NCBI RefSeq assembly: GCF_964355755.1
Contig: NC_092672.1
Span: 22,333,237-22,397,236 of the forward strand
DNA: 64,000 nt
Direction: 5' to 3'
Source: Antedon mediterranea
Lineage: Eukaryota > Animalia > Echinodermata
This document shows, one piece after another, positions 25,668 through 64,000 of this stretch. The stretch's first letter is position 1. Each line of letters opens with the position of its first letter. Both the position numbers and the translations under genes were made by a program. Below the pieces are notes generated by a model that saw only the letters and a program-made list of their open reading frames with translations, ran no database searches and was not told where the DNA came from.

Positions 25668-25674
25668 ACTGATG

Positions 25675-33722: not shown

Positions 33723-33779
33723 GGTTTCGTCCGGGCTCGAACCAGGTACCTTCTGCGTGTTAAGCAAACGTGATAACCA
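33723..33779 (-). pseudogene. tRNA-Val(AAC)-derived copy truncated at the left edge of the candidate giant element
   Basis: Matches the 33211 copy up to ...cgtgataacca, then diverges at a/cacgattttg. Confidence 0.7.
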
Positions 33780-34356
33780 ACACGATTTTGTGCCATAACG
33801 GATTTCTACAATCCGCATTATTTATAGAATTTTCCTAAAAAAAAGCTATCATTAGAATTAAAAATATTATTTGAAAAAACAGATGTGGTTGTAAGATTTG
33901 TTTAATTATTGAGAAAGCATACAGTTTGATAATGTCAGCCATAATGTACATTATGGTAAATATTTTAGAGATAGAAAAAGATCAATAAAATAGATCGACA
34001 ATATGCAAATCCTTGTTTATTCTATAAATTTATAATTCGCTATCATTTTTATAATTATAGAAAAAAACATACTAGCTTTTTTAGGTTAAAATATACTGTC
34101 CGTTTTCCAAAACAACAATAGACATTACACAATGAGTTTTGTTCGGATTATGAGCTTCTTATTTAAACTAGGTTTAATGTGCAGAAACTGCTTTATTTAA
34201 TAAAAAAATAAATGGTATGGGCCAAAAAAATCTTTATAATGTCCATTTTTTTCGCGAAGTACACACAAAGCAAAGAAAACAAATTTTAATAACTGCAGAA
34301 TATTTTTAATTTTTAATCATTCATTGTTTTAATACAACTTTACTATAAAGTTCATC

Positions 34357-34905
34357 TACATGGTCATAAACATTATGACTACAGTATATGGTTGAGCTAT
34401 TGTTATAAAAACTACATGGTCATAAACTTGACTACAGTATATGGTTGAGCTACTGTTATAAAAACTACACGGTCATAAACATTATGACTACAGTATATGG
34501 TTGAGCTATTGTTATATAAACTACATGGTCATAAACTTTATGACTACAGTATATTGTTGAGCTATTGTTATATAAACTACATGGTCATAAACTTTATGAC
34601 TACAGTATATGGTTGAGCTATTGTTATACAAACTACATGGTCATAAACATTATGACTACAGTATATGGTTGAGCTATTGTTATATAAACTACATGGTCAT
34701 AAACTTTATGACTACAGTATATGGTTGAGCTATTGTTATATAAACTACATGGTCATAAACTTTATGACTACAGTATATTGTTGAGCTACTGTTATACAAA
34801 CTAGATGGTCATAAACTTTATGACTACAGTATATGGTTGAGCTATTGTTATATAAACTACATGGTCATAAACTTGACTACAGTATATGGTTGAGCTACTG
34901 TTATA
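34357..34905. repeat. 56-bp tandem array (about 10 copies), most units carrying the palindrome GTCATAAAC(T/A)TTATGAC
   Basis: Unit ctacatggtcataaactttatgactacagtatatggttgagctattgttatataaa (period 34521 to 34577). Confidence 0.95.
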
Positions 34906-35020
34906 TACAATTATGAAATTGGTTGAAAATTAAATAATTTTTTTTAGATTCATTATACATGTAAAATTCCATTAATGTGCACCCTATTGTGACAACCAGT
35001 GAGTTGTAAAACTCCCTGCA

Positions 35021-38000
35021 TTAACTTTCATTTAAAAAGTCATCTCTTAATTCTTTTAATTTAACAATAACATTGGTAGGCAATCTACTAGTTGGTGTTA
35101 AATTAAATATACTTATCACCTCCTCCTTCGATATTATTTCTCGCCATTCTTGTCCATCTTTTTCACACAGAACAAACCGGGAAGTATACGTTCCAGTGTA
35201 CCACACTACTTCTACCTTATTGTTATTTATGCTGAATATTTTGCCTATCTGAGGCCATTCTGTGGGATATCTCCTTAAAGCTGTTGCTACCATAGCACCA
35301 ACATCGAGTTGCTGTGGTGGCTTACGCTTCGAAAATTTACCAATGTGTACCTAGTAGTGTGGGAGAAAGCATAGAAAAGTCATAATCATTTTTCTTACAA
35401 CCCTAAAAATATAGAATTTTCGTTGATGCATTTGCTTGATGCGATTATGAGATCATATCCCAAATATAAGCACTGCTTTAAACTATGTTGCATTACATTA
35501 AATTTTGAAAATCTATAATATCTTTATCATACCGGTCTTATTTCATTTTCATTATCTGAGTCACTAATGTCTGTCTCGTTTCCATCAGATTCCTCCCTCA
35601 TAGGGCTTGCATTGTTGTCATTAAAAATGATGTCATGGAGCAAAAATCGCTGTTCATTTCCTAAAAAAAAAGAGTACGTATTAGTTTTAAAAAGTAAATA
35701 ATATACATTCATACAAAATATCATGATATATTTATGCTGAGGTGTTTGTTGCATAAAAGCTGGGCCAATACATTGCGCACCATGCTAATCAGATGCGGAT
35801 TGATTGATTTTATCTTATGAATTAATCAGGAGGCATGTTTCTCCAGTGTACTCCACTAGATATCAGTCATGTTATTTGATAATTTTAGGTTCTCACATAA
35901 AATGATCAGTGGAAGCATGCATTGGTGAATGTGACCCAACATAGTTGTGTGGAGTAAATAGTTGAATTTTGTTATAGCTGCTGAATCTATACTAAAATCA
36001 AATTTCTCTTGTTAACCAAAAAATATATGTGTAAAATGGTGAAACATCACACATGCAATGTAGTACAGTACATACCTTCTGTGATCTCTTCTATATTATT
36101 TAAAAATTCCTCCCACCAGTCACGTTCTTCTATTCGCAAAAAATTTGCAACAGACGCCAGACTTTTTTTTAACTTTGGTATATCTGCATTACTAAAATCA
36201 GGAGTACACAACACTGGTATATCAGCAGGGCTTTCCTTGAGCAAATATGGAAGTGTGTCCATTTCTCTTGCACATTCACACCAAGTACAATCCGTTGACC
36301 AGTTCTTATAGGACATGATGCATTTTCCGGTTTGAGCCAAAACAAACTTAAACTGGTGTGGTTTGCTGTGGTAACGTATGTCTTGCATGTATGGTACTAA
36401 CCAGTTCTTAATGTCATGCAGATAGGAAATGATACTTGATGTAATCGGCAACTTTTTGTACGAGTTTTCAACAGCACTTCGAAGATGATCAAGTGTAGAT
36501 GCTCTATATTTGTTCAGGTATTTGGCCACACATGAAAATAATTGGGTCAATATCCTCGGGAGTGTGACCCACCATTAAAAACCCAATCTTTATCTGAAAG
36601 AGTAAAAGAAGTAATGATTTAAAATTAAAACTTTTCAAAGCAAAATAAAAAAAAATACATTTTTAGTATATTTCCATTTTTTCCTCATCTAGTTAGACTA
36701 GAATGTTATTGAATATTTTATGTCTTTAGATAATTACCAATAGTAAATTAATTACTGTCCTATTAGGCTGGTGGAAATCACCCAACACAGGGGATATTTT
36801 GTGGTGAACGAGAACAGGGTAAATGAATGATGAACTGGGTTCTTTAAAGTGCACTGTGTATACTGTTTTATTATTTATATACCATTTATAAATGTATAGT
36901 CATTTACCTTTCGAAAAATCTTTAACTCTACAAGAAGAGCACATAGGGCAAAAACAAATCTGTTTTTATTATCCTTTCCGCTATTGTCCAACTGCAGATA
37001 TAAGACTGGTGGTAGAGGTTGTATCTCTGACAGCACCGTCAGTATAATGTTGCAGGTTAGGTTTGAGTCATGTGGAAACTGCTTTAGGTCAATGAAGCAG
37101 TGCCCATGTCGCCCATGTACCAGAACACCAGTTACATGTGTGGCTAGTTTCCACATCTTCGAAGGAGTTGTGAGGCCCATCATACATGCATCTGGATTGT
37201 ACAGTATGTTTTTCCAGTATTTTATTATGAATGAAAATTGAACCTACAGGACTTTCTGCATAACATTGAAGTGAATTTATAAAAATACGTTAAAAAATAC
37301 TTCAGTCAATGAAGATGACATGGATTTTGTCCATTGGTACAAACCATAATAAGTGTAAAAACGTAAACATACCTCAGGTATTACAATATGCTTGAATTCA
37401 ACACACCAAAACTTGTAGAATGTCGCTAATGCACACACATCTTCATTTCTTAGCTCAAACTCATCTTTCATATGCATGTACACATCATGTTTGGTAAGCG
37501 TTGATGGTAGATGGATTTGTCCGTTAGTTGGCATTTGATCACCGTATTCATTACAAAATTTAATAAACCAAGCCCGACACTGTTGAGTTGAATTGCTATA
37601 TACCATCTTTCTGGTGAAGTTGGGTGGTAAAAGATAACAGCATCCTTCTGAAAAGAAATAAAATGTAAATTTCAAATATTAGGAATTTCAAATACTGTAC
37701 TATTTTATTATTGTTTGGTTTAATCCATTGATTAATGACTTATGATCATTTTGCATTATCTTTCTAACATAGTGTTAAGCATATTAATTTTATTGTGTAA
37801 AAATAATTAAACAATAATCAAATGCATTCTATCTATTCATTTAAAAAAAAGTTATTCTCCACTCCTCGTCAGATCCTGCCTATGTCCCTGTATAATACGA
37901 CTATAAGTATAATGGAAAGTAATCTTCACACAGTCACAGTAATCTTTCCGTTTCAGCAACATTAAAACACATACATTAAAAGTAATATTAACAGCATGTA

Positions 38001-39252
38001 AAATTAAATAATGTAAAATGTACTGTAAAACTAAACAATTAATTACCAATAGCTTGCTTCCTTATTTTGTAAAAAGTTGACCGGCCAATACCATTTACTA
38101 ACATCCATGCTTTTGCACAAACTTTGTTAGCACCAACTAGTAGACAGATTTTGGTGGCACCTCCGGATGTGCTGAGATGTTCATTGAAATATTTAAGGAT
38201 CCAACAGCGTTGTTCATATTCGGTCATTGCTTGAAATGCTTCCCTTGTCTGTTTTATTTCTCTAAAATTTAGCATACCAATGCACATTAATGCACAACAG
38301 CAGGTCAAATACAAGTTGTGTATTGGCTGTAGGTGATTCCTTTTCCTTTTTTCTACAGAAAGAATAAACTTACATTATCCATTGGCAAAAAAAACAAACA
38401 AACAAAATAACAATTATATGGTACCAATTGCGGAAAATGTGATCAGTCAATACGGTTTCAGAAGTTTTGGAGGTTACGTAAAACTAGGTGACTAATTCGC
38501 ATTAATATATAGATACTTTTAATTCTTTGACAAACAATTTTTTTTTCGGTTCAGATAATTCAATTTCAATTTTCGAGTGTTCAATTACAGGTTGTGCAGG
38601 TGCCTTGTTCATTGGACAGTCCTACCTATTTACATACCATACAGACATAACATTAGAACCTGACCATAGAATCAGACACAAATGGAAACAACCAGCAATT
38701 TCCATATCTTTTAGGTACAGCACAACCATCAACATCAAGCACTATTTAATAAAAGTAGTTTTAAAAATTAATGACATATCAAACCTACCACTACGCTTAC
38801 TTGTGTGATTAGAGATTTTAATCTCATCATCACTTGATCCAGATGAATTAAGGTAATTAGTTTCTACAGTCTCTAGGCCTCCTGTATTTCTCTTGCAGGC
38901 TAAATAAAAATATAGTAGTTTAATATTTATAGCAGCCTATGCAACATACATGTACAGTAATTCTTCATTTGGGGTAACTGGTGATTGATAGCAGACATTT
39001 TCAAATTTTGGATAGTGGAAGATAATATTTTGATCCAGGAGCTATAGGCTTTATGGGAGGTTATTACCATTTATCCTTTTTTTTTCACCATTATTCTCAT
39101 CGTTATTAATAATGAGGTTTTTGTTGTATTTTGTTATTTCTGAAGAATGCACCTTTGTAATTATTAAGTATGCTAATGATTTAAAGGTGTAGTAGGGAAG
39201 TAAATCTAAATAAATAAACTAGCCTCTATAGAGGATACTAATATCTACTGGC

Positions 39253-39296
<44 letters not shown>

Positions 39297-41428
39297 TTAT
39301 TAGGCTGGCTGCTTAAAAGGTAATTCCCTACCCAAGCCTAGATGAAGTTTTGTATAAAGTTGGTAGGAGCCCTACTAAGAAAGGTTAGCAAAAGCTCATG
39401 GTTAATGTTATTGCTACTGACCTGCTGATATGTCATCATCGGAAGTATCGACATCGGAAGTATCGACATCTGTTGTAGAAACCTCCCATGCTTTTCTCTC
39501 TGCTGCTGGAGGAACTTTGGTAGTTGTTACTAGACAAACAGAGTCTATGTTGTAATCAGAAAATGTGCAATTTAAACTATTATCATAGAAATACATTTAT
39601 TGTTTAAAAGGGACTGCTAATTTCAATTTTTTATTTTATGATTCCAGATCAATTATTTATTTTACATATCAAAATAATTTCTTTTTTTTCCAGTAAAAAA
39701 CCCTTGCCAAGGGGACATTATTTTGTTCCTGAAGCCTTAATAGGGGTTATACTGAACGTAACTAGAGGTGGTCCAGTGAAATAGAAAACGTTAACAATGC
39801 AAACTTCTTTGTTAAGAACAATCTCAACGCACACAATTGTGTTATAAGTACGGAAAGGTAAATCAACAAAAAAAAAACTATACTCAACGATAAATGTCCC
39901 AATCGAATACGACATTGCTACCTCCCAGATCGGGCCCATAAAAACATAGGGATAGGCCTAGAGGCGGCCTCTACTCTAACCTAGTAAATAACTACATAAC
40001 ATGTCATTGTATTGTTAAAGTTACTGACCTGCTGACTCTGTCGGTATGTCATCATCAGAAGTATCGACATCTGTTGTAGAAACCTCCCATGCTTTTCTCT
40101 TTGCTGCTGGAGGAACTTCGGTAGTCGAAATCCCAGTAGGTGACCCTTCTGTATCATCAACAGCAGAACATCCATTATTGATTGATTGAATTGAACCGTT
40201 CCCACGTACAATTAGGCCTACTTCATCATCTTCACTTGAAGAATAGTAAAGCATACGCTCAGTTGGATAAGCAGTGCTGTGTGTTGTTGTTACTTGACAA
40301 ACAGATTCTGTATCGTAATCAGAAAATTTGCAATTTGATTAAATTATTATCATACATAATTAATTAGATATTAAATCAAGAATGATTCCACCGAAATTTT
40401 GAGTTAAAATAACGATAGTGAAGCATATGAATAGGCAAACTGCCTAAAAATTGACATGTTTTGAGAAACTATTCTCATCTTCCACCAGAACAGAAAACAA
40501 CGCCTAGGCTTAGAGTACTTATATACCAATAGGACAGGTTGTATGTAAATGAGGAAGTAATTAGCATGATAAAACAACAAGGAATGTAGGCAACAAACAA
40601 TCATATGGCAAGCGTGACGCCTATTCATCAAATGCCTCACTATCGTTATTTTAAATAATTAATTATATGCCACACATCGTAAAATATTTAAATTGAAAAT
40701 GTGTATGTTTGATCTCTTCTTTGGGACACCCTTTCCCACAAACAAGTGGATATAGGCCTATTAAGGGGGCCGGCACACATTTTGAGTGTAGGCCTACCTG
40801 GAAAATGGTTGATTACCCCTATTAAGTTTTTTCTATCCCAAACACAGTACAGTACTACATACTAAAATTCCCATATGAATAGGCCTAGGCTAGAGCCTAT
40901 CTCTAGCTAGGCTTAGTAATAAGTAATATTTACTAGGCCCAGGCCTAGGGCCTAGTACTAGGCCTAGTAGTAGTAAATAACTAGGCCTCTAGGCCTAGGC
41001 CTACCTAGGTATGAACATTCATTGTTGTAGGCTAGGCCTATTGTATTGTTATACTCACCTGCTGCTGCTGACTCTGTCTCAAGTCTGTATGTCATCATCA
41101 GAAGTATCGAAATATGTTGAAGAAACCTCCCATGCTTTTCTCTTTGCTGCTGGAAGAACTTCGGTAGTCGGAAGAACTTCGGTAGTCGAAATCCCAGTAG
41201 GCGACCCTTCTGTATCATCTACTCCTAGGACTAGGCCTAGGCCTAGGCCTTCTTCATCGTCTTCACTTGAAGAATAGTATAGCATACGCTCAGCAGTTGG
41301 AATGGAACAGGGTGTTCTGTCGTGCCATCATCAGAAAATGTGATATTCATAATGTTATTATCGTAGAAATATGCATCGTCTTCGCTTGAGTATTGAAGCA
41401 TTAGCTCAGAGTCGCTTATCATGTTCAT
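35021..41428 (-). pseudogene. Multi-exon Sola-like DDD transposase with Cys-rich N-terminus and Tudor/SH3-like C-terminus; approximate exons 41058-41428, 40025-40254, 39417-39596, 38787-38899, 38047-38354, 37372-37647, 36909-37190, 36076-36594, 35533-35660, 35021-35350
   Basis: LYLQLDNSGKDNKN and IGFLMVGHTPEDID-QLFS (1-nt frameshift ~36546); YGDQMP...IHLP; CCCALMC...VCAKAW...GIGRSTFY; GT-AG junctions. The first catalytic Asp region was not found. Confidence 0.8.
39253..39296. repeat. (TAG)n microsatellite
   Basis: About 14 tag units. Confidence 0.9.
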
Positions 41429-43445: not shown

Positions 43446-44059
43446 TCATGGTCTGCCCTGTCGTGAAAGAACGTCTCAATTGACACATTTTAAAAAAGCT
43501 TTTTGGGCAATTTAGGGAATGATACACCTTGTGGTGCATTCGGATTTTCAATTACTTGCAATTATTGTTCATTCCGGATGATAACAAAAACACGTTTGGT
43601 TGATTATCTGAAAATTATGCAGTATGCAGTTGAGAGGTTATTTCATGACGGGGCAGAAATGTAGGCTAATAATAATTTGTTTTGCACAATGCATGGTTAA
43701 TATTAAACATCTTTTTTTATGCGAGTCTTCCTTATTACTTTCATTTAAACGAAACACAATTAAGTCACCTATGTGCGCTCACTTTGCTTTTTCACTTTGC
43801 AATGTTATCGATAACTTTAAACGAAGGGAGCCAACCGAAGCGCACCCGCATCATTTGGACGCAATCATAATGGGTTTTTGGACCGATGTCTTATTAACGT
43901 TCCCTTTTGTAATGAAAATTATGTATAAAGGGTTTTTTTCGGGCCGACATAAAAGTCATTCGAGATTCATGACATTTTTCGTTCTTTAATTTTTAAATGC
44001 CAAGGAGAACTAAAATTAGCAAAAGTATAGTCACGCGAGGGTTTATGAGTGCTATAGGA

Positions 44060-45130: not shown

Positions 45131-47776
45131 CCCAAGAACCAGTGGGAATATTAAAAGAAAGCCGATCACGCTTACTAACATCTTTTAAACGGAGTTTTGG
45201 ACGACGATATCAATGCCTGTTGCCACTGAATTGGACTGTGACTTTCATATCTTGTTCTTACGTGATATTAGGATTTATTGCTAAAAATCATATACAGTAT
45301 AACCAAAGTTAAATATAAACTATGAAATATGAGTCTATGAAACATTTTAATTAACGCTTGAACTTTTTTTAAATTAATGTGATTGTAAATAGGGGCCTAC
45401 CTGATTTGTATTAAAATGTTTCTAGGCCTATAATTATCAATTATTCCTTATATTCATCTGAATATAAAACAAAAGTCTACTTCCGAATTGGCAGGGTCGG
45501 AGTCACTATAATGTAATTAGCTACCCCATTTGGACGGAAAATAATAATAATAATAACGTTCAAATTACTAATATAATGTTCAGATACTTTAGTCTAATAC
45601 CACCTCAGCCCGACCATGGGGTTGGTTAGAGCATTTTTTAGAAATAGGGACATAGCTTAGATTGCTAGCAATTCCACTATTAACTCTTGATAATATCACA
45701 GATAAGTTTAAAGTTTTAAAAAACCGCTGATTATAGTTTCAAGCAATAAATAGATAGGACTGGACATGCCCTCTAGAGTAAAACTAGGTAAAACTATAGG
45801 AATCCATCCCAAAAACGTATTGGATTTGTTTCCGTTTAAAAATCTTTTCATTTACAATAATTTTTAGTTCATACATTAAATGCCAAGGAAAACTAAATTT
45901 AGCAATATTATTTGTTTAGGGGTGCAAATAAAAGTGAAAACTATAGACAAGATGTAAAGTAGTCTAATGTACCGTTTCTTCGATAATCTTAATTTTACCT
46001 ATACCTATACTTTTATTCAGACATTCCGGATTTTTAATCCTCTCAAAAATAATGTTAGCTAAAAGTAAGAGTGCATTGCCTGGTCTATATTCCTGAAAAA
46101 AGTTTTGTCGTCTCTCGATTTTATGATGCTGTGTCCGATTCTATAAATACGTTTTATATTAACACTGGCAGTATTTATCTATATTAACGAACACATCCCT
46201 TTTTACTTTCCGTACTTTTGAACCTTCTGAACATAGTCTGGTTATACTGAGATTGTTTATCTAATTGAATTCGTATCATATATTACGTAATATTAGGATA
46301 TATTGCTAAAAATCAAGAAGTAAATAATTGTTCGGGTTGAGTGCTATAGGATAGAATTACAGTTATGAAAAATGTAACGAACAATACACTTTAGAAGTTG
46401 TTTGAATCCCATCTAGTCTACACGCTTTAAACTATTTTAATTTGATCGTAAATACCTATATTCGTGTCATTGATATTACACGATTGCGACATGAATTTTC
46501 ATCAAAGTATCATACATTAAAAGTGATGCTGGTGATTGTAAATAAAGCTCTTTTAAATGGCAACCATATACCATACGTTTCTTATAGACCTAATCCGTTA
46601 GAAAATTAAAATACTTTTAAAACTTTTAATTTGCATCTCCTATTTAGGCATCAAAACTTATTGTGTGTTGTCCCTTAGATGGAAACCAGGCAATCTAGCA
46701 CCAAAATAATTTCGTAATTATATACTGTAGGCCTAGTGTATATATTAATATAAATCACTCGAATAATGACAATACAAGTTATTGCCTATTCCCTATCGAA
46801 GTTAAAAGTTCTTCTGTAGGACTAAGATACAGTCACTAAAGGCAATATTGTATGTATGTTACCTATTAAATACAAGCCCGTACTTCATCATTCAACATAA
46901 TTAATAATTTCGCCATGCAAACTTCGAAGTGTTTTTTTGTATACTTTACTAAGTACTTTCCATGTATTTTAAATAGTCAATTAAGCTAAGAATATAGAGC
47001 ACCGTGTTTTTATAGGTTCATCTTTTAAATGTGTCTCGTTGTGTGCTTTGCATCTGTTTAAAAAAAAATCGTCACATTTGTCTTAGCTTTCGGAGTCAAA
47101 AATCTCGAATGACTTTTATGTCGGTCGAACAAATTTATTATGATGAACTCGTATGTTGATTCTCTCTCTCGGACAACATCTTTATAAAACTGGCTAATCG
47201 TATCTTAGCGGTATCAGGTCGGCTGTCTTCGTTTTGCTTCTAGATATCGCATTAAGCTATTAGTAGGCCTACCTGACATAACCGAGCTATCAAAAAGCGA
47301 ACTTCAATCACAGAGGTGACTTATTTGTCCCAAATTTAGTTGAGAATGTTTTAAGGCCTAAACGAATTATTATTACAAAATTTAGTGGGCCTATATTATA
47401 AAGTGATTGGTTTAATGAAATTAATAACAAAGACTCGAATTAAAAAGTACAGTATAATTAATCATGCACGTGTAAAACAAATTATTATATTAGCCTATAT
47501 TTTAATGCCAACACTTTTCCAATACGTGCTTAAATTGGCTTTGATTGTTGCTTCATAGAAAACCATAACCAATTAATTGTCTAACCAAAAATGTCATTTA
47601 TCTCATACACTGTAATATTTGTAGTGAGTGGTAGAAACCAAAACACTCTCCGTATGAGAATGACACAGAGATCAGCTATAAAAAACATTAAAGTTTTTCT
47701 GTAACCGAAATGTTAATTCAACCTACTTGCAGAAATCGCACAGGACTTTTAATGTAGTCCTGTTGCTTTCAAAAGT

Positions 47777-50055
47777 CATGTCGCAATCGTTTAATATCTT
47801 ATATCAATGACACGAACATATTAGGTTGTCAAATGGAGCGACAAAACTCGCAAAGACAAAAAAACACTTGGAATTACTACTTAAAGCCACAAAACTGTTT
47901 GATCTTAACATTAACATACTCCCAGATCAGTAAAATTATTCCATCGACTACCTAAGTTTAAGGTTCAATATTAACCACCATTTGAGTTGCTTTTTTTAAG
48001 ATACAATCCTAATTGTTTATATCTACCAAGCTATCTTCATTGTTTTCAGCTTGTGCCTTGATCCTTTGTTTTTATTTCTTTATTCCAGTCCACTCAGGCA
48101 GTGCTTGTTTGCTTCATATTCTCAATTTTGTCCTTTCACTTATAAAGGGCTAGTGGATTTATATTTAATGTTTTTTTAAATTTCTGTTGTTTTAATTCAC
48201 ATAATGTCTAAAAGATCGCAATAATAATGAAGCTTTTGAAATGGATGTAAAATATTCATATTCTCAATTTTGTAAAAGCACTTCCACTGATATAGTATAT
48301 TATCCTATTAATTAAATATGACAAGTTGTACAGGTAGTTTCAGTTTTTATTTTCTATTGTTTTTGTATATTTTTTTTTTAAAGTAATTGTGTTGCTTAAA
48401 TCATGGAGGTATAAACATATTTTGATATGCTTAAATGTTGTATGTGTGCCACTGTTAAATATGTGTTGCTCCAAATAAATATTATTATATTATTATTACA
48501 AGGTACAGTATTCATTTCTGAAAATTATATACATAAAAGATGATTTGATCATACAGGAAATTGTTTGAAGATAGAATTTAAAGTTTAGATTTAACTTGTT
48601 TTAAAGATTTAATGTGGCTATACTTTGATATATTATAAACGAATTTAACAAAACTCTTTGAAATTTATAATTCTATTGAGCCTATATGCGTGGTACGGTC
48701 ACTGTTACTCTTTATTCATTGATTTAAACTTCAGGATAGACTTTTTATTAGAAAGAAATAAACACACCAGGGTTAAAAGGGTTAAATAATCCATAATTAA
48801 GCGATATATCTACACTGTGAGACACAAAATGCTTTCATAAAATTACACATTTATACCTTTGCTTAATAATAATATTTTATAATAATTCATTTTAACGGCA
48901 CTACGCCTACATGATGATCATGGGTAGCTAATGGCATGGGGCTCCGACCCTGTATGCCACTTTTGGAAGTGTTTATATTGATGTTGCAAACAATTTCATT
49001 ATCAAAATTTATATGTAGAAGACAAAACTGATTAATTAGTGTGCATGATGCATATAAGAAGTAATTACTGAAAACTATCATTGTAGTACATTTTTTATAG
49101 TATTAGTAGTACTTTATAGTATAAAGGGTGTATAAAGTTGTGCCTTTTTAAGCATGATTTGAGTGATAGTTGTTTTTGGGGTTGGCAATTATTGCGACAA
49201 AATTGTAATGTCCTTGACGTTATTAATGCCTAATTTCCGTGACAGAGATAGGCCTAAACCCTTATATCAATAACATATCATTGGATTTTTTTTTTAATTA
49301 ATGTGATATAAAGGGATAATCGCAGAAACAGCACAGAACTCCGAATTCCTAAAAATGCTCTAAACATTAGTCCCAATCATAGTCGAGCTGACGTGGGTTT
49401 GGACTTCCAAATATACACAACCTTAAATTACCACTAAATTTCAAAAACGTTGCGCCGGTTCTGAATATTATATCTAATCTGAATGATATAGGCCTAAATG
49501 AATAATACTGATACTTGCAGAAACCGCAAAGAACGTTCAATGTATTGCATTCAAAAGACATGTCGCATTCGTGTAATATCTTATATCAATGACACGAACA
49601 TATTAGGTTGTCAAAAGACAAAAAAAACTTGGAATTACTACTTAAAGCCACAAAACTGTTTGATCTTAACATTAACATACTCCCAGATCGGTAAAATTAT
49701 TCCATCGACTACCTAAGTTTAAGGTTCAATATTAACCACCATTTGAGTTGTTTTTTTTTAGATACATTCCTAATTGTTTATATCTACCAAGCTATCTTCA
49801 TTGTTTTCAGCTTGTGCCTTGATCCTTTGTTTTTATTTCTTTATTCCAGTCCACTCAGGCAGTGCTTGTTTGCTTCATATTCTCAATTTTGTTCTTTCAC
49901 TTATAAAGGACTAGTGGATCTATATTTAATGTTTTTTTAATTTTCTGTTTTTTAACTCACATAATGTCTAAAAGATCGCAATAATAATGAAGCTTTTGAA
50001 ATGGATGTAAAATATTCATATTCTCAATTTTGTAAAAGCACTTCCACTGATATAG
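47777..50055. repeat. About 500-bp direct repeat pair (47777-48294 and 49559-50054)
   Basis: catgtcgca...atcaatgacacgaacatattagg...cacttccactgatatag present twice at high identity. Confidence 0.9.
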
Positions 50056-51712
50056 GGCTAGTGTTGCCCATAATAATAATAATAATAATTTATTTGGAGA
50101 TTACACTTTTACAACAGTGGCACTCGACCAAATGGAAGGTGCATCCATATATTATCCTATAATTAAATACGATTTAATGTGGCTTTACTTTTATATATTA
50201 TAATAATATTTTATAATTATTCATTTTAACGGCACTTTGATAAAACAATGTTATATATCATACTATTGCACCTTTATTCATGGGGTGACCTACTATAACC
50301 TTACACTATTATGGAAAAAAAGAAAAAAAAAACAAATAAGAATTGTGAAAGTTAACCCAATGTATCACAGGTGTGACTTGGCTACACAATTGAAAAATTC
50401 ATTATATAATAATATCATGTGCATGCAAAAACAAAATTGTATTATTAAATGTGCATATCATTTATTTGTCTAATATAATTTTATATATTAGTTTAATTTA
50501 TTTTTCTAACGCCTAGTTTGACAGGCCAACTTTGAAATTGAAATAATCTTTTCGTTCGACACAATATTTCAGAGATACGTGAACATTTGATGATGGTCTA
50601 TCCGATATGACTTTGTTTTTTTGTACATAAAAAGTGGACAATTTTGGTTTAGATCAATGAATGCTTAAAATTGTTTTTTTTTTTGTGCTATATTTTTCAA
50701 GTTGATATCTGGAATACTATCAATGCTTTTATCTTATAATACGCGATATATTCATATTTTTTTACAAGAAAATAAAGTATTGATCACTAGCTTGTTTTTA
50801 TGTATTTAATAACTATTCTAAGTTCATTTTAAATAGGCGTATGTTTATATTTTAATGATTCATGGTAAACAATTATAAACAGCTTCAATATTACACAGTA
50901 GGTTATTCAAAAGAGACGCACAATTTATACGGACGTGTTTTTAACGACAAAATTGACCAATCAAAATGGAAATAGTCAAAATACAATAATTTTATGTTCA
51001 TTGGCTACCCCACCAACAACCTAAACTTCAAATAATAAAAGATCCCTGTAATACTGTATTTAAAAAAAAGCATATTTGCAACCGAAATGTCTTATAAATA
51101 TAATATAAATTTACAATTATACAAAACAATATACAACTGCTTATAAAAAAGGAATTTAATTCAAGAATTTTAATTTAGTTAAAATATCAGGATTTCTTAC
51201 TTCAATTTGATGTTTCCTTTAGAGGCGCTAAACTTTTGAATATATGATTTATTTATTTTTTGGTCATATGTTTTTTATATCATGTTATTATGTTATGTGC
51301 AAATAAAGTATTTACATAGTTGATATATATATATATATATATATTATGCAGTGTAGCATAGGTGAAATTACGGGAGCCCAATATGAATTAGTTTGAAATG
51401 GTAAAAATTATTTTACTACAGTATAAGTAGATTAAAATATATAAATTAATCTATGAAAATGATTATATATTACTGGCAGATTTTATCGATCTCTATCGTG
51501 CAAATAATACTCGTTATCGATATGAAATACGATTTGCACTTGAGTTTTTCTTCCTGCTGATCTGTAGCTTTAGTATAAACAATGTGAACAATGCCCAAAC
51601 AGGGAGTTGACTAATAACTCCCTGGCCCAAATAAAAGATCGTAACAGTGTGAAAGTGCGTCACTCGTCGCCCAACATTGTTTGTGATCACTTCGTTATCG
51701 CATTTGATAAAA

Positions 51713-54700
51713 ATGGACTGGAGGTTTTGTGTAGAGGAAGACAACATTGCTTATCTAATAATTAATAACACTAGGGCAATAAAGCATTCTGATGGTGAAC
51801 AGTTAGGCAAGGTTATAAAATTTACCAAAACAACTAAAGGCAAAAACTGGCTTAAGGTAAGATTGTTGTGTTCTTCTAAATAATATAATTTTCTTTTAAT
51901 GTTTTTAGGGAACCATTCTTCACCAGTCTTATTACTTTATACAGATGTTTTATTTTCCATTTTGCAGTTTTAAAAAGTGTTTCAAGCCACGCAATTATTA
52001 GTTTTATTAGTATTTTCCCAGGGGCACAATCTTCAGCTGTTTAATAGGCCTATTATATTTGGATTTTATAGGCTTTCTGATTATAATATATATTATGATT
52101 TATTCGATTATTTATTTCATCTAATTCATTGAAATGTTGTTTCAGGCCTAAAACTAAATTGTAATATATCTTTACTATAGGACCATTGATACTAATTTTG
52201 TTGACCATTTTTTTAACATGAAAGTTTTATATATGATTTAAAAAATGCATTTTCATCAAGAGCACCAACACTGAATATTAGGGTGTAGTGTGTAGACTTA
52301 CCAACTATATAAATTTTTATGTTTAGTTATTTATTTAATTAAAAACAAATTTGCAATACTATAGATTGTTACAGAAGAAAGCGACTGTAGTAGTACGCTT
52401 GCTGCAACCAAAGTATTGTGGAGCAAATTCAAACCGGACGAAAATTGCCCATTTTGCAAATGCAAGACAATTGACGACCTTACCAAAACATTGCAAACAT
52501 TACGAAAGCGAAAAGCTCAAGATGCTGAAAACTTAACACAAAGAGAACAAGAATTAACATAAAGACAATCGACGAAACAATCAAAGAAAAGATCATTGGT
52601 TAGTATATGAAACATTTGTTATTGAAGTTACATACTGTACCATGCCCCATGGACAAGCATAATTATTATCTGCTTTTGTTACTGTAGTTTACAATTAAAC
52701 AAACGTTACTGTTTTATATTTTTTCAAATGTTTTGTTGAATATGTCACATAATAGTTATTCACTTTGATCTTGGATAACAAAAACTGTAATTTTAAACAT
52801 AACTCACAATAACTATAGGCCTAACCATGATTAGATTTAATGTATCTACAATTCGTTACGTTAAATTAGTATAATCTGGCTAGATAAGTAATTATACGTA
52901 CTAGGCCTATTAAAATATAAAGCGGATGAACACATTTTTCGAAGATGAACGAACTAAAGATATTTTGAACACAGGTTTTAACTTCTTATAGTTACTCTAT
53001 TTTCTATTTGTTTTATTGTTATTTAAGTTTCAAACAGTTATTATAAAACGCATAAATAGATTCCGGTCATTCGATTGGACAATTTTCTTTCACATGACTA
53101 CTACTAGCCTTGCAAACCCAGACCTAGGCCGGATGCTAACATACACTAGGCCTAACCTTCCTAGATATTGTGCAAAATACCTATATAAATTCAAAATTAA
53201 CTAAAATATAAAAAATAACATGTGCAGGGTGATCTCCATGCACTTAAGCAAGCAGGGGGTGATGATGTCCTGACACTACCTAGGCCTAGACTAAATGGCC
53301 TATACTGTATGGCAACGTTAAATTTTTAGGATATATATTGTTATTTAAAAAATAAAACTAATATTAAAATATAATGTCAATCATTTTTTGTAATTCATAT
53401 AATTTAATAATGTATCCTTTTTCTGAAAATGTCCAACTTTTTATGTAAAACAATTTTTTAAAATGTTTTTTACTGATGTCGCAACTTGCAATTACTGTGG
53501 AATTCCCCATTTTAGTAAAAAATAAAATTGGTTTATTAAATATAAAAATCCTATCATAATAATAATACAATGACATATTTATATTAAGTTGTTTCATATT
53601 AGAATTGTGAAATACAGGTAAATGATTTCACTAAATTGTAGTAGTAGGCTGACATTATTAGTCACCGACACCCAGATTAGCCAGGACATAAGATTACTAC
53701 GATGCTTGATCTAAATCCTGGGGAGAATACTTCCTTGTTGTATAATCATAAGATGTAATATTTAACAAACTGTCATTTTACCTTTATAGGTCTAGTTGCT
53801 GTGCCAAGAAGTTCGATAGTAGCGCTGCCATCGGACTTACTACTTCGCAAGATCGACCAAGATTTTGTTAAAAAAATTCAAGAAACGCTTACAAAGGACG
53901 GTCTGGTGAACACGATACTACCTGTATTGCTTAATAAAGAACATTACGATTTCTTTAACAAACAAGAATACGAGAAGTGTATTTTTTATTCACTTGGCGG
54001 AAATCATTTAAGAACAGCACTATCAACAATGAGTGAGAATATATTTAAACAATTAGAAGTGGCAGTCTATTTTGATCTAACAAAAACTGAATCACTACGT
54101 GTGGCATCTCGACATAATTTCGTCACAGGTAATACTCACCAAGCAACTTTTGAAGACAACGTTGCAGTATGCCGTAACCTTTTGCAAGATTACAATGACA
54201 AAGATGCCAAAACGACTTCGACATGGAGGAGAAAGTGTGCAGAGGCAATTGGCAAACAATCGTTCGAAAAAAAGGTATTATTAATATTATTTAAACAAGT
54301 TATTTAGGACTCTAATATATAAAGTTGTAATTAATAATGTAATGGTGATATAATTAATAATAATGTTGTAATTAATAATAATATATAATAAATAAGGATA
54401 TTAACAATAATAAAAAGATAATAACGATAATAATAAATAAGGATAGTAATAATAAATAATAACGTTGTATTGCAGATAATATCGTCCATGGAACCGATGT
54501 TCCAAGTATCATTGTATACGGACCGATGCTACACAAAGGTTACCAAGCTGTTTGCCCAGTATAATGCAGGAACGGTAAAGGATTCCAAACCCGGAAAGCA
54601 ATTGAAGCAGTCGGTAGGTTTCTTACATTTATTTTCTGTCACATTTATTCTCTCAATAAATAGCAATTACTGGTGTATGCTTTTTTTTTGGCAAAAACAA

Positions 54701-57680
54701 ACAAGCAAGAAACACAATCAGTTAATTATTAGTCTCAGTCACTTGCGGTAGAAACAACGCGTCTTCATTCAAAGGGTTAATAACTTTGTAAAAAACAATC
54801 TATTATTTATTAATTTATTTATTTTATACAGTTGTCAACCAACAGCGATGAAACCGCCACTAACAGGTTAAATCTAAACATAACAAACTATAAAAATGTA
54901 TTCAAATTAGGCCTAATTTATTATAAAAAAAAACATTTTAAAATAGGCCTGTTTTTTCTAAAGGGGGGGGGGGGAGTGTGATTAACTTTGTTAAAACTAA
55001 AAAATGGCCTATTCAAAAATGATATGACGTGCATTAACAATTGTTTTGTTTTCTTCAATTGTTATCCACACGAGAGAAATGTTTATACTGAACCTCTTGG
55101 ACCCTTATTGGAACGCTTTATTATTTGTTATCAGTATTGTGACTAAACATTTTTTTACAATTCTATAGTTCTTCATGACACTACAAGGCCTGTCGGAAGA
55201 AGACAAGTTTGAATTGCTGTCATCTGTAACAGACGGAACAATGTCCATTAAAGAGGTTGAAAATAAAGCACGGTCGATTAAGCAGATAAAGGTGATCAGA
55301 GGAAAATTTTTGACAACTATTAAAGTACTGACATGGAAGGAAGCGACCGAAAGATTTCCGGAGCACACGACCGATTCTGCTCTTCGGCCTTTTTTAACAA
55401 CAAGTAAGGTTACTATGTTACTAATAGAATTCAGTCGCTGTATTTGTGCTATATTTCTAAAACCAAGTCCCACTCTGTCAGATTTTAAAAATTCGTACAA
55501 AATTGAAACAATTTAATATTATGCAGTTCGATGCAAAGGTACTTTATTCACACAAAACTACTATCCCTTATAGAAATTAAAATATTGAATAAATAATAAT
55601 AAAAACATTTTAATACATTTCTTTTGAAAGGGAAGTTATCTAAAAGCGAAATTCCACCAGGTTTATTCATGCATTGTCAAGATGCTCTGTTTTGGGAGGA
55701 ACAAAGGCAAAGCCTCAAGCGTCAACAGTTGATATTTTAACAGAAGATGGAACAAGATCAAAGTGTCAAGTTATGTCTGGGCCGTTTATTGGCAGAAAAT
55801 TGACAGATATTGCCAATTCCAGTAATATGGGGTTACATCGTGGCCTGCTCGTACTGACAGAGGTTTGATATATTTTAAATATTTTATATTGTTTTGTATA
55901 TTTGTAATTCATTCTATAGTGAGGGGTTTTCAAATTTGAAACTAAATTGTTTTTTTACGGCCTATCAATGTGGCTTTACTAAGAAAGATTTTAATAGATT
56001 TATATAAACAACAGAACAAATATTCAAACTGTTTTTAGAGATTATATATATTATTTTATAATTCTACCCATTCTAACTGACCCCCCGAAGCCTGACACAT
56101 GCAATTTTTGCATAACACAGTAACATTGAGACTGCACTGGTTTTGTTACTGGTTTTGTTACTGTTGTTATTCTTATTATATTATTTTTTCTATGCTTTTT
56201 TTTGTAGAAATGTGAAAAAGAAATGCTGATTTCTGATGTCATCGTAGTTGTTTGCAATGACGAGGACCTGCTATACAATATGACTATTTTAAAAGACAAT
56301 GATAGAGTCATGCAAGTACAGTATTGGTATTGCGAAGAACAAGGTATACCCAGTTTGTTATTGTATTTACAAATATAGTTCAGTCATTTTTATTCAATTA
56401 TAAATATAGGTCAATCATTGATTGGCAGTCTACTAAAAAATGTTCACCAATTTGCAATACTAACTGCTTTTTGGTATGAGGTGGATGGTGAGGTAATGGG
56501 GTTATTTCTTCTTGTTTCTAATAAAAGAAAAAAAAAAGAAATGTACCATTGATATTATTATTATTATATTCAAATATACAGGAAAGTTAATTTAAGTATG
56601 TAGGCCTACAGTTTAATGATGATTCATATTTTTTTTAGACACCATTCGCACGTTATTAGTAAGCCCTCAACACGAACGCATGATGAATGGAATTGGTGGC
56701 GTCATTAAGGCTAAGTCACTAGAACCGCTAATTAAGCAACTAGTGACAAGGCATAGCAGAGAAGGTCACTTAGTTGTAAATTGCCTAGGATGGAATGGTA
56801 AATAATACATTTATACCATAACTCATAATAATCATTCATTGATGTTAACCAAAAACATACCGCGTGACAATTGGGCATGTCGCTAAAATCCAATCAAATG
56901 GGAAAAATTCTTGTTCTTTGAGTCATTACTATTGTCGTTTGTACAAACGACATTAATGAACTAACAAAATATTTTAATATTCAATTGAAATCTATTTTAT
57001 TGTTATTATAATTACAGTGTTCAAGGAAATAATTTTGCAACGGCGCAATTGTATAACCTTGCTCGAGAATGATGGGGAATCTGAATTAAGATCCAGATTA
57101 GTTCGTTTCAAAGAAGAAATTGAAAACAGCATTCAGCTTGAAAATGGAGCCCAATCGGATGGTAAGTTTAAGTTAAATTAACTTTATTGTTTATCTATTG
57201 TCATGGATGCTAATACGAAGAACAATATACAAGCGATATTGTATACATTCAAGTCGCAATACAATGCTGATGATTTGATGTTTGTAGTGCAATATACTGC
57301 TACTTTTTGTTCAGGAATTTTAAAACGGCATATTAAGCTGTATTCTCATAACTTGGACGGCATACTATGCTATCTGTATTGTAAACTTGTATAAACACAG
57401 CCCATGCATTTAATTTTTAATCAATATTCAAAATACCCATAATCAATTTCTGACCCAATTTGAAACATATAGTAATACAAATTTAAAAAAAGAGATTCTC
57501 TATTTTAAAATTTTGTTTACACAGAGCTTCTAAAAAAATTATACAACTATTTAGAGGTCTATTAAATAATAGGGCCTTGGTTTATTCATCATTTCAGATG
57601 AGGACGACAGTACAGATGAGGAGGTTGAAGATAATGCGGAGATGGCAAATGAGGAGGACGACTACACATTTCCGGGGTGA
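51713..57680 (+). pseudogene. Multi-exon gene: ParB/Srx-like domain + helical region + degenerate beta-class N6/N4 DNA-methyltransferase-like C-terminus + acidic tail; approximate exons 51713-51856, 52366-52598, 53790-54274, 54476-54613, 55169-55403, 55631-55862, 56208-56343, 56410-56487, 56639-56797, 57018-57161, 57598-57680
   Basis: LLRKIDQDFVKKIQETL...YSLGGNHLRTAL (ParB GxxR box). Spliced C-terminus QYWYCEE...LKNVHQFAIL...AKSLEPLIKQLVTRHSREGHLVVNCLGWNVFKEIILQRRNCITLLEND...RL. Phase-compatible GT-AG junctions; apparent 1-nt frameshifts near 52555 and 55680. Confidence 0.75.
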
Positions 57681-58110: not shown

Positions 58111-58664
58111 TTAAAGATGTATTGTCCCTTTGACTAATTCCAAAAAAATAAAAAATAACAGATTTCGAAAAAAGGGGGGTCATTTTGAAGTATCATAATA
58201 ATTATTAACTATCACCAAACATTTTTCGAAAAAAAAAAAATTTAACTGAAATACAGACGTTTTTTTGTTAAAAAAATAACTTTGACTTCCAGTCAAAGTT
58301 TTCGATCAAAACATATCCCATAATGAAATGCGCTTGTTTGGCTACTCTGTATGCATAATCATAAAACTTCCTCGCGATCTGTGTGAAAACACCTTCTCAA
58401 TCGTGACGAGTTGTAAACAATCCTAATTAGCATCATGCATAATGCGTACTCGTGGTTTGAAATGTTTGTTTACTTTCGCTCGCGACGATTTTCTAGACAA
58501 ATGTAATCAAACTAATTTACCTGTTAATTACGTAAACTTGTTGCTTTTGGCTTGAATTTTCGACTTAAAGTGAATAACTTTAATATTACTTTGATATGGC
58601 CAATTTAAATTTAGAATATTTTGACCTTCATTTTTTTGTGTTTCAAGGGACAATGCATCTTTAA
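58111..58664. mobile_element. TTAA-flanked MITE of the same Kolobok-like TIR family as 5791-8643
   Basis: TTAA-AGATGTATTGTCCCTT ... AAGGGACAATGCATCT-TTAA. Confidence 0.85.
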
Positions 58665-58813: not shown

Positions 58814-59199
58814 GTCATAAATTTTATGACCTAATGGCAGCTTCACAATCATGTCATAAATATTATGACTTATGTGAAAATAGTCAATACCTTGAAGCCC
58901 GGAAATCACAGCCTCATGTACTATAACCAGCGTATTCCGAGACATAACATGTAGTTTTAAATTGTCATAAATTTTATGACCTAATGACTGCTAAATTAAT
59001 GTCATAAATATTATGACTTATGTGAAAATAGTCAATACTGTACCAGGAAGCCCCGAAATTAGTGCTTCCTGTACTATACACTATAACTAGCGTATTCCGA
59101 GACTTAACATGTACCTTTAAATTGTCATAAATGTTATGACCTAATGACTGCTAATTAATAATGTCATAAATATTATGACTTATGTGAAAATAGTCAATA
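58814..59199. repeat. About 150-160-bp tandem unit x ~2.5 carrying six copies of palindrome GTCATAAATNTTATGAC in pairs
   Basis: Palindromes at 58814, 58853, 58964, 59001, 59124 and 59163. Confidence 0.93.
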
Positions 59200-59957: not shown

Positions 59958-62900
59958 GCTGGTTGAGAATTGAAATGTTTGGATAAAAGAGAAGAAAATT
60001 AAATGAGTTATTACAACAGGATATGTCATTTTTTTTGTCACCAGTATGTAGATTTAGGAGGACACTTTTATATAGTTTAACTCTATTTCCTTTAACATAA
60101 CATGTTTGATAGCCTGATAAGTTTAGTAGACTTCTTTATTGATTTATTGACTGAATTGATTTATGTAGGTCTGTCAGTCTTTTAAACAGGTAACAGGTTA
60201 GATCTAGTATACCAATTGATTTCTGTAGGTCTGTCAGTCTTTTAAACATGTTACAGGTTAGATCTAGTATACCAATTTATTCCTGTAGGTCTGTCAGTCT
60301 GGTAAACATTTATCACATTAGATCTGATATATCAATTGATTTCTATAGGTCTTTCAGTCTTGTAAACATTTATCACATTAGATCTTATATACCAATTTAT
60401 TCCTGTAGGTCTGTCAGTCTTTTAAACAGGTCACAGGTTAGATCTAGTATACCAACAGCAGTACAACCTACAGGAATCAATTGGTATATCAGATCTAATG
60501 TGATAAATGTCTAAAAGACTGACAGACCTACAGAAATAAATTGGTATATCAGATCTAACCTGTTACCTGTTTAAAAGACTGACAGATCTACAGGAATCAA
60601 TTGGTATATAAGATCTAACCTGTTACATGTTTAAAAGATTGACAGTCCTACAGAAATCAATTGGTATATCAGATCTAACTGTTTAAAAGACTGACAGACC
60701 TACAGAAATCAATTGGTATACCAGATCTAACCTGTTACATGTTTAAAAGACTGACAGACCTACAGAAATCAATTGGTATATCAGATCTAACATGTTACAT
60801 GTTTAAAAGACTAATAGACCTACAGGAATCAATTGGTATATCAGATCTAACCTGTTAAATGTCTAAAAGACTGACATACCTACAGAAATCAATTGGTATA
60901 TCAGATCTAACATGTTACATATTTAAAAGACTAATAGACCTACAGGAATCAATTGGTATATCAGATCTAACCTGTTACATGTTTAAAAGACTGACAGACC
61001 TATAGAAATCTATTGGTATATCAGATCTAAGGTTGTGTTAAATGTTTTACTATTTTTTCTGTCTTAACTTTCAGTCCTGTAGTTATCATACTAAGAATTG
61101 TCCTCATATGTGTAGACATTAAATTAAAATACTATTTAATATTTTTGGCTAAAATAGCAATTATTTGCTAATAAAAACTGAGCTGAGCTTGTTTCCCTCT
61201 AGTACTTTTTAGGGGTTCTATAGAAATTTAATAACATAACTCTAAAGGAAATTCCACAGAGTATTGTGAATTGTACATCAACAGAAAAAAGCGCATAGAC
61301 CGTGCAAAAGTTGTTGTGACATCATAGCTAAAGTCAATAAGCATATTATGTGAATGAACACTAAATATGAAAATAGACTGTAAGGAGTGGTAGGCAGTTG
61401 GTGCTACAAATTGGTTGAATTTTGAGTTGATTGGTAAAGTCAGTATAGTTATCAAGATTTCAAGTTGAGTCTGTAATTTGTAAATTTGCATTGTTTGTAG
61501 TTCATATTAAAGCAAGAAATACTACCCTAACTATTATCAGATAAATTTATTTACAAATTTGTAATTAGGTGATCATTTAGAATAAAATGATCACCTATTG
61601 TTATTGTATGAAATCTTTATTCTTCTTCTTATTCTTATTATTTATTTCTCTCTGTACAAATTTGTGTAACAATTATCTCAAAAAGTTTAATGTAAATGAT
61701 TACCAAAATTTTACAATGTCTTTCAAATACTGTAACTTAGTCCTAATAAGCTTTTCAGCGTGATCACTCATCCATGACGTCGCGTATACGCCATTTTGTG
61801 AAATCACATTGTCAATCATATCTCCATAATTCATTATCACATATTAATGAAATTCACTACACGTAAACTTCAGGTCAAAGGTAAAAGTATTAGCAAATAA
61901 AAAATTGCGTGTTTCAAGGTCATGCGCGTGAAATCGCGCATTAAAATTTTAAAAAGCTCAAAATTAAGTTTTGATCAATTTAGAGCATGAAATAGGCCAT
62001 TTGCGTGTTTCAAAAAATTACTGCGCAAAAACACATTTTTGCGCACGCGATTTTTGAAAAGGGTAAAAAATAAAATTTGATGTATACATCATATTCTACT
62101 CACAATCCTTAGTACATTCTCCGACTTTGAGTCCATTCCGACTTAAAATAACGCTATACGAGCACGTTAAAAATGACAAAATGCGCACATTAATTGTACA
62201 AAAGTGCTAAAAATGGTAAAAAATAAGGCCTTTTTAAAATGAATATAACTCTTCAGAATGGCAGTTGACCCCCAATTTTTTTAACTTATTATGGAAGCCA
62301 ATAAGTTGTAGATATAAATATATATACATATTAGACGTACAAAATGGTATGACGTCATGAAATGGCCACTTGAATTTAAAAATTAGTAATTTTTATCTTT
62401 TTGTGTGGGTTATCACATTCAATAGAGCGCATCTCCGTTATTTGAGCCCGATTTTTGCAGATATTTTAGTATGTGCTTGCTCAATTAATTATCTTTCTTG
62501 TGAGTTGTCAACATTTTTATTGTGATGACGTCATCACGCGTAAAAACTTGAATAACCTAGGTCGTGTAATTTCAGCTACACCATACATTTGAATATCTTA
62601 TAGCTCCTCAGAATTAAAGGTGACCTTGAAGATTATAATTTATTATGAAAGCTGATGAAATGTAGATATGAATTCATATCAAAATTAAGCCTATCGGATG
62701 TTGTGATGTTATCATATGGCCAGTTGAAGTTAAAAAGTAGTTTTTAAATTTCTTTAGTCGAAGTTATACAAATTTCAAAGAGCGCGCATTGCGCTTCTAC
62801 GTGTCAAATTCTCTTCCAATCCTTATATTTATTTGCTCAATTCATTATCTTTCGAAATTGTCATCTTCGAGTTTATTTTGATAATTCCATCATACCAAAA

Positions 62901-64000
62901 AATTTGAACTTGATGTGTGTCCCATAATTTCACCTATGCTACACTGTATATAGATATACAGTATATACTGTACATTGTATATGGCATATAATAAGCATAA
63001 CTCAGCACTATAAGCGTATAATAGGATGGCATACATCAACATTTTCCTATCGTATGTTAACGTACGTACATGTTTAAAAAAAAATTAATTTCATTAAAAT
63101 GATAAAAATGATCACCTATAATTCGTCAAAGTGACGAATTAAATTCTAGTTTACAGTTTAGTATTGAAGGCTGCAATGAGTAGATTTGAAAATAAACACT
63201 GAAATACTGTTTGGATCAGAGTGCAAACAATTTTTGTAAATGTAAGAATTACACAATTGTGGGAAGCGGGTTAAGAGTATGGGAGGGGCATGTTCTTTCA
63301 CCCCTAATTAGGGATGTCAGAAACTCTAAACTCTGGGCAATCTCTAGGCTTGATTGTTGTTTTACCTAGTCACCATGCATACAGATTATAAGCCAATTAT
63401 AATCTGAAAAGAAATTCTAAAAATGGACAGAAAAGTATGAGTCATTGTACTGTATTAAACAATTTTTTTTTGCACGGCAACCAATTCTATGTAAAAGATA
63501 CCGAGATTTAATTAATTTTACAATGCTAAAGTAATTTTTTTTTTCTCTTTTGTGGGGCAGCCCACTTTTATTGCACATATTATGATAAACAATATGATAT
63601 TTATATTACACATTCTGAGGTTAAAAGATTATAGAAAATATTGTGATATTGTGTTGAAATCTAAATATGATAAAACAAGTATACAGAGAAAATTTATATT
63701 ACAGAGCTAAAACGATATAAAGATTAACTCAGTTAATATTCAGTATTAACAAGCACGAATGTGCAATACTCGGGGTACAGCAAAAGAAGCTGTAATGACG
63801 TCATAAGACCGGATGTAACGTAACATACACATCAATAACCGCGCTACCAAATACGGCTATACGGTACCATCTTCGAGACGTGATATGGCTGCATCCGGTA
63901 TGAAATTAAAAAATCCGGCTCTATAGCTTTGAGGACATGTCCCTGTAGTATATTCATGCTAAATCCGAGCTCAATACTACAAGGAAAGGGAGGAGTATTT
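59958..64000 (+). repeat. Direct duplication, copy 2 (runs off the window), including the foldback 60-bp satellite at ~60125-61030
   Basis: Colinear with 30433-32690; duplicated 88-aa ORFs at 30723 and 60248. Confidence 0.96.
61567..63149 (+). mobile_element. Helentron-associated non-autonomous element (HINE/DINE-1-like), 1.58 kb
   Basis: Absent from the paralogous site at ~31840 (gtaa-ttt-acag) and inserted in a T-run. Sub-terminal inverted repeats TAGGTGATCATTT/AAATGATCACCTA, a (ttc/tta) microsatellite and terminal hairpin AATTCGTCA-AAG-TGACGAATT. Confidence 0.85.

Follow-up and report, generated by a model that had tools for sequence, protein, structure and literature searches.

A 64-kb stretch of AT-rich animal DNA from Antedon mediterranea (the window, to which all statements on this gene copy refer) harbors a ten-exon gene on the plus strand (51713–57680, with AG/GT ends throughout) encoding a ParB-like protein. 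The gene is spliced, occurs in dispersed near-identical copies, stands head-to-head with a DUF7869 gene and is flanked by two palindrome arrays, and its product has lost the DPPY and FxGxG motifs as well as the GERRxRA arginines. Considered jointly, the scattered copies, the divergent transposase-like neighbor and the arrays on either side make it very likely that the gene is transposon cargo. On balance, the favored explanation is that it is an accessory gene of a DNA transposon of roughly 25 kb, whose ParB-like product would bind the flanking 17-bp palindromes as a dimer and carry a likely inactive methyltransferase at its C-terminus. The initial annotation of this DNA described a stand-alone animal gene; the gene is real and its domains hold, but the near-identical copies, the DUF7869 gene and the palindrome arrays had been overlooked.

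The spliced joints were read from the read set X1, which is RNA by guess only; its GT..AG joints imply spliced RNA. Seven such joints were observed, i.e., 52598/53790, 54274/54476, 54613/55169, 55862/56208, 56343/56639, 56797/57018, and 57161/57598. Public A. mediterranea protein models share these joints from 54274 on and additionally use 55403/55631, and one of them, P0006, showed a 100% match to four window exons. Neither 51856/52365 nor 55403/55631 was seen in X1. Exon 1 bears a loose likeness to the N-termini of P0063 and P0042 that is not significant (E 0.049), and exon 2 matches the Anneissia protein P0010 in two frames. The proposal of a spliced animal gene is thereby borne out by the joints, except for one exon of the initial model (56410–56487, yielding 'GQSLIGSLLKNVHQFAIL'), which is bypassed by the X1 joint and by all six public models spanning it (P0003, P0004, P0006, P0007, P0008, and P0009). 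This exon resembles the Ptychodera homolog P0061 (pairwise E 6.7e-4 with the exon and 0.013 without it), and its inclusion gave a profile score against methylases of 27.7 vs. 31.9 without it, a comparison confounded by the misaligned tail of P0012. A 1-base deletion at 56435 was present in part of the contig depth in all four read sets. From its sequence, the segment is likely a real cassette exon or a recently lost one.

The N-terminal part of the protein was analyzed by structure prediction. The AlphaFold2 (AF2) model of the 161-residue exon 3, built with 40 homologs, had a predicted local distance difference test score (pLDDT) of 92. Foldseek comparison of this model with the PDB gave 12 matches at E ≤ 0.001 (best E 8.5e-5); the ten listed were all KorB, Noc or ParB, with sulfiredoxins lower. 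Viral ParB-like proteins were also the top named rows for this exon in a viral library. The models thus argue strongly for a ParB/KorB/Noc N-terminal fold in exon 3, in agreement with the ParB/Srx domain proposed earlier, and the ParB-like motifs quoted for this exon are present as stated. Alignment of residues 80–230 of the P0004 model with VIA-align matched KorB (Z 5.8 and 5.5), ParB-parS (5.2), Spo0J (5.1), and SopB (4.4), giving moderate support to a predicted KorB/ParB-type helix-turn-helix in exons 4 and 5. The initial domain reading was therefore sound for the ParB/Srx and degenerate methyltransferase parts and missed the predicted helix-turn-helix between both. A reading-frame artefact was ruled out, as joints, homologs and fold agree. 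At the sequence level, NCBIfam gave no match to the protein, PHROGs returned only weak ParB-like matches for two of 10 proteins (P0012, E 0.0056; P0063, E 0.11), and PDB sequence searches returned only rows at E > 0.07 (sulfiredoxin, E 0.8–2). No ParA partner gene was found among the 18 of the window's 48 longer open reading frames (ORFs) that were scanned, a scan in which small exons could be missed.

The candidate binding site was found as a palindrome, GTCATAAA-N-TTTATGAC, with 14 matches within two mismatches against 0.11 expected in 64 kb. Eight copies lie at 34363–34824 and six at 58814–59179, and there are none elsewhere in the window. All 14 are perfect as GTCATAA-N3-TTATGAC, which is the most repeated palindrome of the window. 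Both arrays are located outside the ParB and DUF7869 genes, at the outer flanks and about 25 kb apart. The arrays differ in unit length (56 vs. 160 bp), so that the palindrome is most of what they have in common, as would be the case for a site bound by a protein. In DNA transposons, subterminal repeats often serve the transposase, so the palindromes need not belong to the ParB-like protein. According to the main rival explanation, improbable overall and yet the most serious one, the gene is indeed carried by a transposon, but the transposase owns the palindromes as its subterminal sites; the ParB-like protein would bind DNA or chromatin elsewhere and might, for example, regulate the promoter region between the two genes, much as KorB acts on its plasmid. 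The arrays do sit where subterminal repeats usually sit, the repressor KorB is among the best structural matches, and the two genes are divergent. However, a helix-turn-helix dimer is well matched to a perfect palindrome with a spacer, and in the algal precedent described below, arrays of this kind adjoin the ParB gene throughout the Plavaka families.

Ten public protein models (P0001–P0009 and P0011) sit on at least five chromosome-scale contigs, some of them being isoforms or fragments; they show 94–100% identity to P0004, and many are partial. Two exons of the neighboring gene matched DUF7869, presumably a transposase family, in Pfam (E 1.2e-35 and 2.6e-19). The first 39 residues of P0004, which lies on another contig, correspond to the antisense of the DUF7869 exon 37047–37163 (97%); the two genes are therefore linked in a second copy too. 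Beyond Antedon, 51 homologs were obtained at E ≤ 0.001, the family extends down to about 20–40% identity, and of 20 homologs whose source was checked, 12 are assigned to animals of five phyla (echinoderms, hemichordates, molluscs, a nemertean, and a sea anemone). One Mytilus homolog had been automatically named a ParB/Sulfiredoxin domain protein by UniRef. Two unrelated loci, L077 and L078, also have the phase-1 intron that directly precedes the ParB exon. No sequence relatives were found in viral contigs, annotated phages or prokaryote genomes, and metagenome scans gave 0 and 2 short loci. By language-model features, P0012 was nearest to two Streptophyta clusters (813 and 1673 aa; 0.95 and 0.92), pointing to possible plant versions of this module; clusters of phage ParB proteins and methylases came next at about 0.8 and count as leads only.

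It is unlikely that these copies belong to a host gene family that recent segmental duplications have dispersed, with the transposase-like gene and the arrays as chance neighbors. Such an origin would be in keeping with the ten exons and the conserved intron position, with a direct repeat of 98–99% identity (30433–32691 and 59958–64000) that brackets the region, and with the failure to find terminal inverted repeats or target-site duplications. Against it stand the near-identical and often broken copies on several contigs, the divergence reached within the family, and the DUF7869 exon linked in the second copy.

The ligand pocket differs from that of typical ParB proteins. GGNHLRTA stands in the place of the GERRxRA arginine patch, which is the motif of CTP (cytidine triphosphate)-binding ParBs according to the available part of a published account (PMC7333895). 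Arg19, Pro44, GGNH, and Asn109 were invariant in a 12-sequence alignment; the pocket is hence probably kept but altered, judging from the sequences. The GGCH of sulfiredoxin (Srx) aligns to GGNH, and the catalytic cysteine (GGCHR) occurs in only 1 of the 48 motif-bearing homologs. A true sulfiredoxin was ruled out, the catalytic cysteine being absent. There is a comparably small chance that the ParB/Srx domain is a stand-alone enzyme (a nucleoside triphosphatase, a nuclease or kinase-like) that forms no clamp and whose activity is the point of the gene. The invariance of Arg19, the Gly-Gly-Asn-His motif and Asn109, the sulfiredoxins among the structural matches and the departure from GERRxRA would fit such an enzyme, whereas the near-complete lack of the sulfiredoxin cysteine and the predicted helix-turn-helix after the domain, as in ParB, do not.

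The C-terminal part was compared with beta-class amino-methyltransferases. An Atlas structure search with P0004 residues 290–490 (an Atlas low-confidence model) gave PF01555 clusters in 10 of 10 rows with template modeling (TM) scores of 0.65–0.71; eight of these rows pass the naming bar, and the first (TM 0.71) is a phage ParB-methylase fusion cluster. Using hhalign, a four-sequence C-terminal profile was aligned over 147 columns to a control profile made from YhdJ plus 43 methylases of viral contigs (E 1.8e-4, probability 49%), the score of 34.3 comparing with a maximum of 17.2 across 100 column shuffles. In the predicted Rossmann-like fold, motif IV precedes motif I, as in beta-class PF01555. 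In the hhalign alignment, the DPPY/SPPY position reads ANSS (about 55812–55823) and the DPFxGxG position reads NCLGWNV, spanning the joint 56797/57018. The N6/N4 methyltransferase-like fold suggested earlier thus finds moderate support from modeling, the two motifs are absent as claimed, and the C-terminal part is likely, though not certainly, a dead beta-class methylase fold. A paralog with intact DPPY/FxGxG was not found among 68 stored proteins. By eye, the homologs P0037, P0065, P0030, and P0015 (from Mytilus, Tubulanus, and one further source) showed a short strand-plus-helix end after the helical domain and no methylase, a layout that recalls the classical three-domain ParB; these gene models may be incomplete. 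That the domain is a still-active methyltransferase with unusual motifs, marking the DNA of the element that encodes it, a role put forward for the algal proteins in the available parts of two reports (PMC12477816; 10.1101/2025.02.11.637652), is very improbable: the fold and the motif order are retained, but the catalytic and S-adenosylmethionine-binding motifs are absent here, nothing like DPPY or FxGxG is found in the three other C-terminal domains (P0012, P0061, and P0063), and three homolog models (P0037, P0030, and P0015) end without the domain.

In the favored explanation, in which the palindromes are sites of the ParB-like protein, a pair of helix-turn-helix domains would read the two 7-bp half-sites of the palindrome, and the N-terminal domains would self-associate, perhaps in a nucleotide-gated manner. 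The dead methyltransferase would replace the C-terminal dimerization domain of ParB. The protein could then coat or bridge both ends of the element, which might keep the ends of a long element together for the transposase and shield them from host silencing. More tentatively, it is also conceivable that large transposons of one lineage, spread across marine invertebrates (echinoderms, hemichordates, molluscs, nemerteans, and cnidarians), harbor a functional ParB/parS-like module that stems from phages. In it, an intron-containing ParB clamp whose nucleotide pocket is rewired would load on element-specific palindromes at both ends and slide along or bridge animal chromatin, so as to bring the ends together or prevent silencing; the dead methylase would be its third domain.

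Apart from the possible ownership of the palindromes by the transposase, several results weigh against the favored explanation. No terminal inverted repeat (TIR) or target-site duplication (TSD) was found in the one copy searched, so the ends of the element are tentative. No array was seen at the short loci L077 (3.2 kb) and L078 (1.6 kb). Pfam gave no ParB or N6_N4_Mtase match for 9 exons, 6 models, and 51 homologs, and the family is invisible in routine annotation because Pfam does not recognize it. The five ParB-family chains within the top 40 rows of VIA-align (Z 4.4–5.8) fall below the tool's caution level of 8. An arginine directly follows GGNH in only 2 of the 48 motif-bearing homologs; CTP-gated clamping may hence be lost in the family. 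For the methyltransferase region, the AF2 model had a pLDDT < 50, Foldseek with the whole P0004 model gave no match at E ≤ 0.001, this region included, and HMMER comparison of the C-terminal profile with 44 control methylases was not significant in either direction.

ParB clamps are familiar from bacteria and plasmids. Bacterial ParB/Spo0J, Noc, and KorB, as described in the available part of PMC7333895, share with the present protein the N-terminal domain followed by a helix-turn-helix, and the clustered palindromes nearby are candidate equivalents of parS. The differences are GGNHLRTA in place of GERRxRA, a methyltransferase fold in place of the C-terminal domain, and a eukaryotic, intron-containing gene with no ParA seen among the ORFs scanned. 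Phage fusions of ParB_N with N6_N4_Mtase (PMC4738411, available part) have the same domain order, and such a fusion cluster is the top structural neighbor of the C-terminal domain (TM 0.71); however, the phage methylases are recognizable by Pfam, while the gene here is spliced and degenerate and has no sequence-level phage match. The available part of the same work by Iyer and colleagues places ParB-helix-turn-helix methylases in chlorophytes and chytrids, along with phage ParB-terminase loci, and animals are not among them (PMC4738411).

The closest precedents are algal. As far as the available text describes it, Sola1-1_Ec32 of the brown alga Ectocarpus (21.5 kb, with a 282-bp TIR and a 4-bp TSD) carries a gene for a 1104-aa protein with ParB and N4/N6 methyltransferase domains opposite to the transposase (PMC12477816). 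It resembles the present locus in the combination of a ParB-like domain and an N4/N6 methyltransferase in one protein, in the strand opposite to the transposase and in its giant size, compared with about 25 kb between the arrays here. It differs in its algal host, in the larger protein (about 664 aa here), in the TIR and TSD, none of which was found here, and in the methyltransferase motifs, which are lost here. The available part of that report mentions no palindrome array, and the likeness is by domain description, not by sequence (PMC12477816). In the red alga Bostrychia, the available part of a preprint describes PAG3, a ParB-oxygenase gene of Plavaka (EnSpm/CACTA) elements, beside tandem inverted repeats (10.1101/2025.02.11.637652). 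Both PAG3 and the present locus have a ParB-like accessory gene with tandem inverted-repeat arrays proposed as its binding sites; in PAG3, ParB is fused to a 2-oxoglutarate oxygenase, the methylase is separate (PAG2), the transposase belongs to another superfamily, and the arrays adjoin PAG3, vs. both flanks here. The locus is best understood as an animal, catalytically degenerate version of a transposon design first described in algae in 2025. The word ParB does not occur in the text of a giant-transposon review (PMC6431247), and a literature search returned no report of an animal case, a weak negative since most subscription papers and Repbase lie outside its coverage.

The algal reports are predictions; to these, the present locus adds an animal example with a clear-cut candidate site and with P0004 as a nearly intact protein model. 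Few transposons use an accessory protein to bind and manage their own DNA. In the available part of the Bostrychia preprint, only VANDAL is named as a shown case of accessory proteins managing their own transposon DNA (10.1101/2025.02.11.637652). If true, the favored explanation would account for the ability of 25-kb cut-and-paste elements to hold both ends together or to escape silencing, and it would offer a eukaryote-adapted ParB/site pair. The features of the locus are listed in Table 1.

Table 1. Features of the ParB-like gene, the palindrome arrays and the neighboring transposase-like gene in the window.
Feature	Position	Strand	Description
Exon 1	51713..51856	+	Predicted, ATG at 51713; canonical donor; small N-terminal region
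Exon 2	52365..52598	+	Joint 52598/53790 in X1; frame break near 52537 in the window copy
Exon 3	53790..54274	+	ParB/Srx-fold N-terminal domain with GGNHLRTA motif, start of helical domain; both joints in X1
Exons 4 (54476–54613) and 5 (55169–55403)	54476..55403	+	Predicted KorB/ParB-type helix-turn-helix DNA-binding domain
Exons 6–9 (55631–55862, 56208–56343, 56639–56797, 57018–57161)	55631..57161	+	Likely degenerate beta-class amino-methyltransferase fold; frame break near 55710
Exon 10	57598..57680	+	Acidic tail and stop; joint 57161/57598; 100% match to P0002, P0003, P0004, and P0006
Candidate 78-nt cassette exon	56410..56487	+	Canonical AG/GT ends, phase 1-1; skipped in the transcripts seen
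Left array	34356..34907	.	Ten 56-bp units, eight with GTCATAA-N3-TTATGAC
Right array	58814..59199	.	About 2.5 units of 160 bp, six copies of GTCATAA-N3-TTATGAC
DUF7869 transposase-like gene	35021..41428	-	Spliced; head-to-head with the ParB gene, about 10 kb apart; 5' exons inferred from sequence only

The small exons had been reported to splice in frame, but the ten-exon chain does not hold one reading frame in the window and breaks near 52537 and near 55710. All four read sets carried, at full contig depth, 1 inserted base after 52537 and 4 inserted bases after 55710, and the chain with both insertions restored amounts arithmetically to 664 codons. The gene copy in the window is therefore defective or mis-assembled; the reads may derive mostly from other copies. 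The end of P0005 lies in the same shifted frame as the window copy, which is probably non-autonomous; with the exon matches of P0006, this suggests that the window probably contains the very locus annotated by these models. A 550-bp insertion of very high copy number (58111–58660), with 5 shared bases at the joint, is absent from the other alleles or copies in all four read sets.

The DUF7869 gene switches frame near 36548 and is therefore likely defective in the window as well. It shows the LDN and GHxxED motifs of the DUF7869 family, which are presumed to be those of Sola-like transposases, Sola elements being marked by a DDD transposase, a TIR and a 4-bp TSD; the Sola-type first-Asp motif was not found in the window copy. 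Its 5' exons (39439–41173, minus strand) contain one 91-bp unit three times with 84–93% identity. The last exon (35021–35350, minus strand) had no Pfam match and is assumed to encode a small chromatin-reader barrel of Tudor/PWWP-like appearance.

The direct repeat that brackets the putative transposon carries opposed 60-bp tandem arrays; a tandem duplication, a long terminal direct repeat and a separate element are all conceivable as its nature. Degenerate inverted repeats (about 78–80%) and a duplication spaced by 1.76 kb occupy the region between both genes (41983–50183), with a reverse-transcriptase fragment (44310–45312) near the center of the inverted repeats; these are probably nested insertions. 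Just outside the left array (32700–33780), a long interspersed nuclear element (LINE)-like fragment that ends in (TTATC)n and three short repeats resembling tRNA were noted by eye. A link of the ParB gene to the Polinton of the window was ruled out, as the latter possesses terminal repeats of its own and stops near 26620. This Polinton/Maverick-type element (about 10060–26620) has perfect inner inverted repeats of 852 nt and several ORFs in pieces, which encode a protein-primed polymerase, an integrase with a chromodomain, an ATPase, a protease, and PC4.

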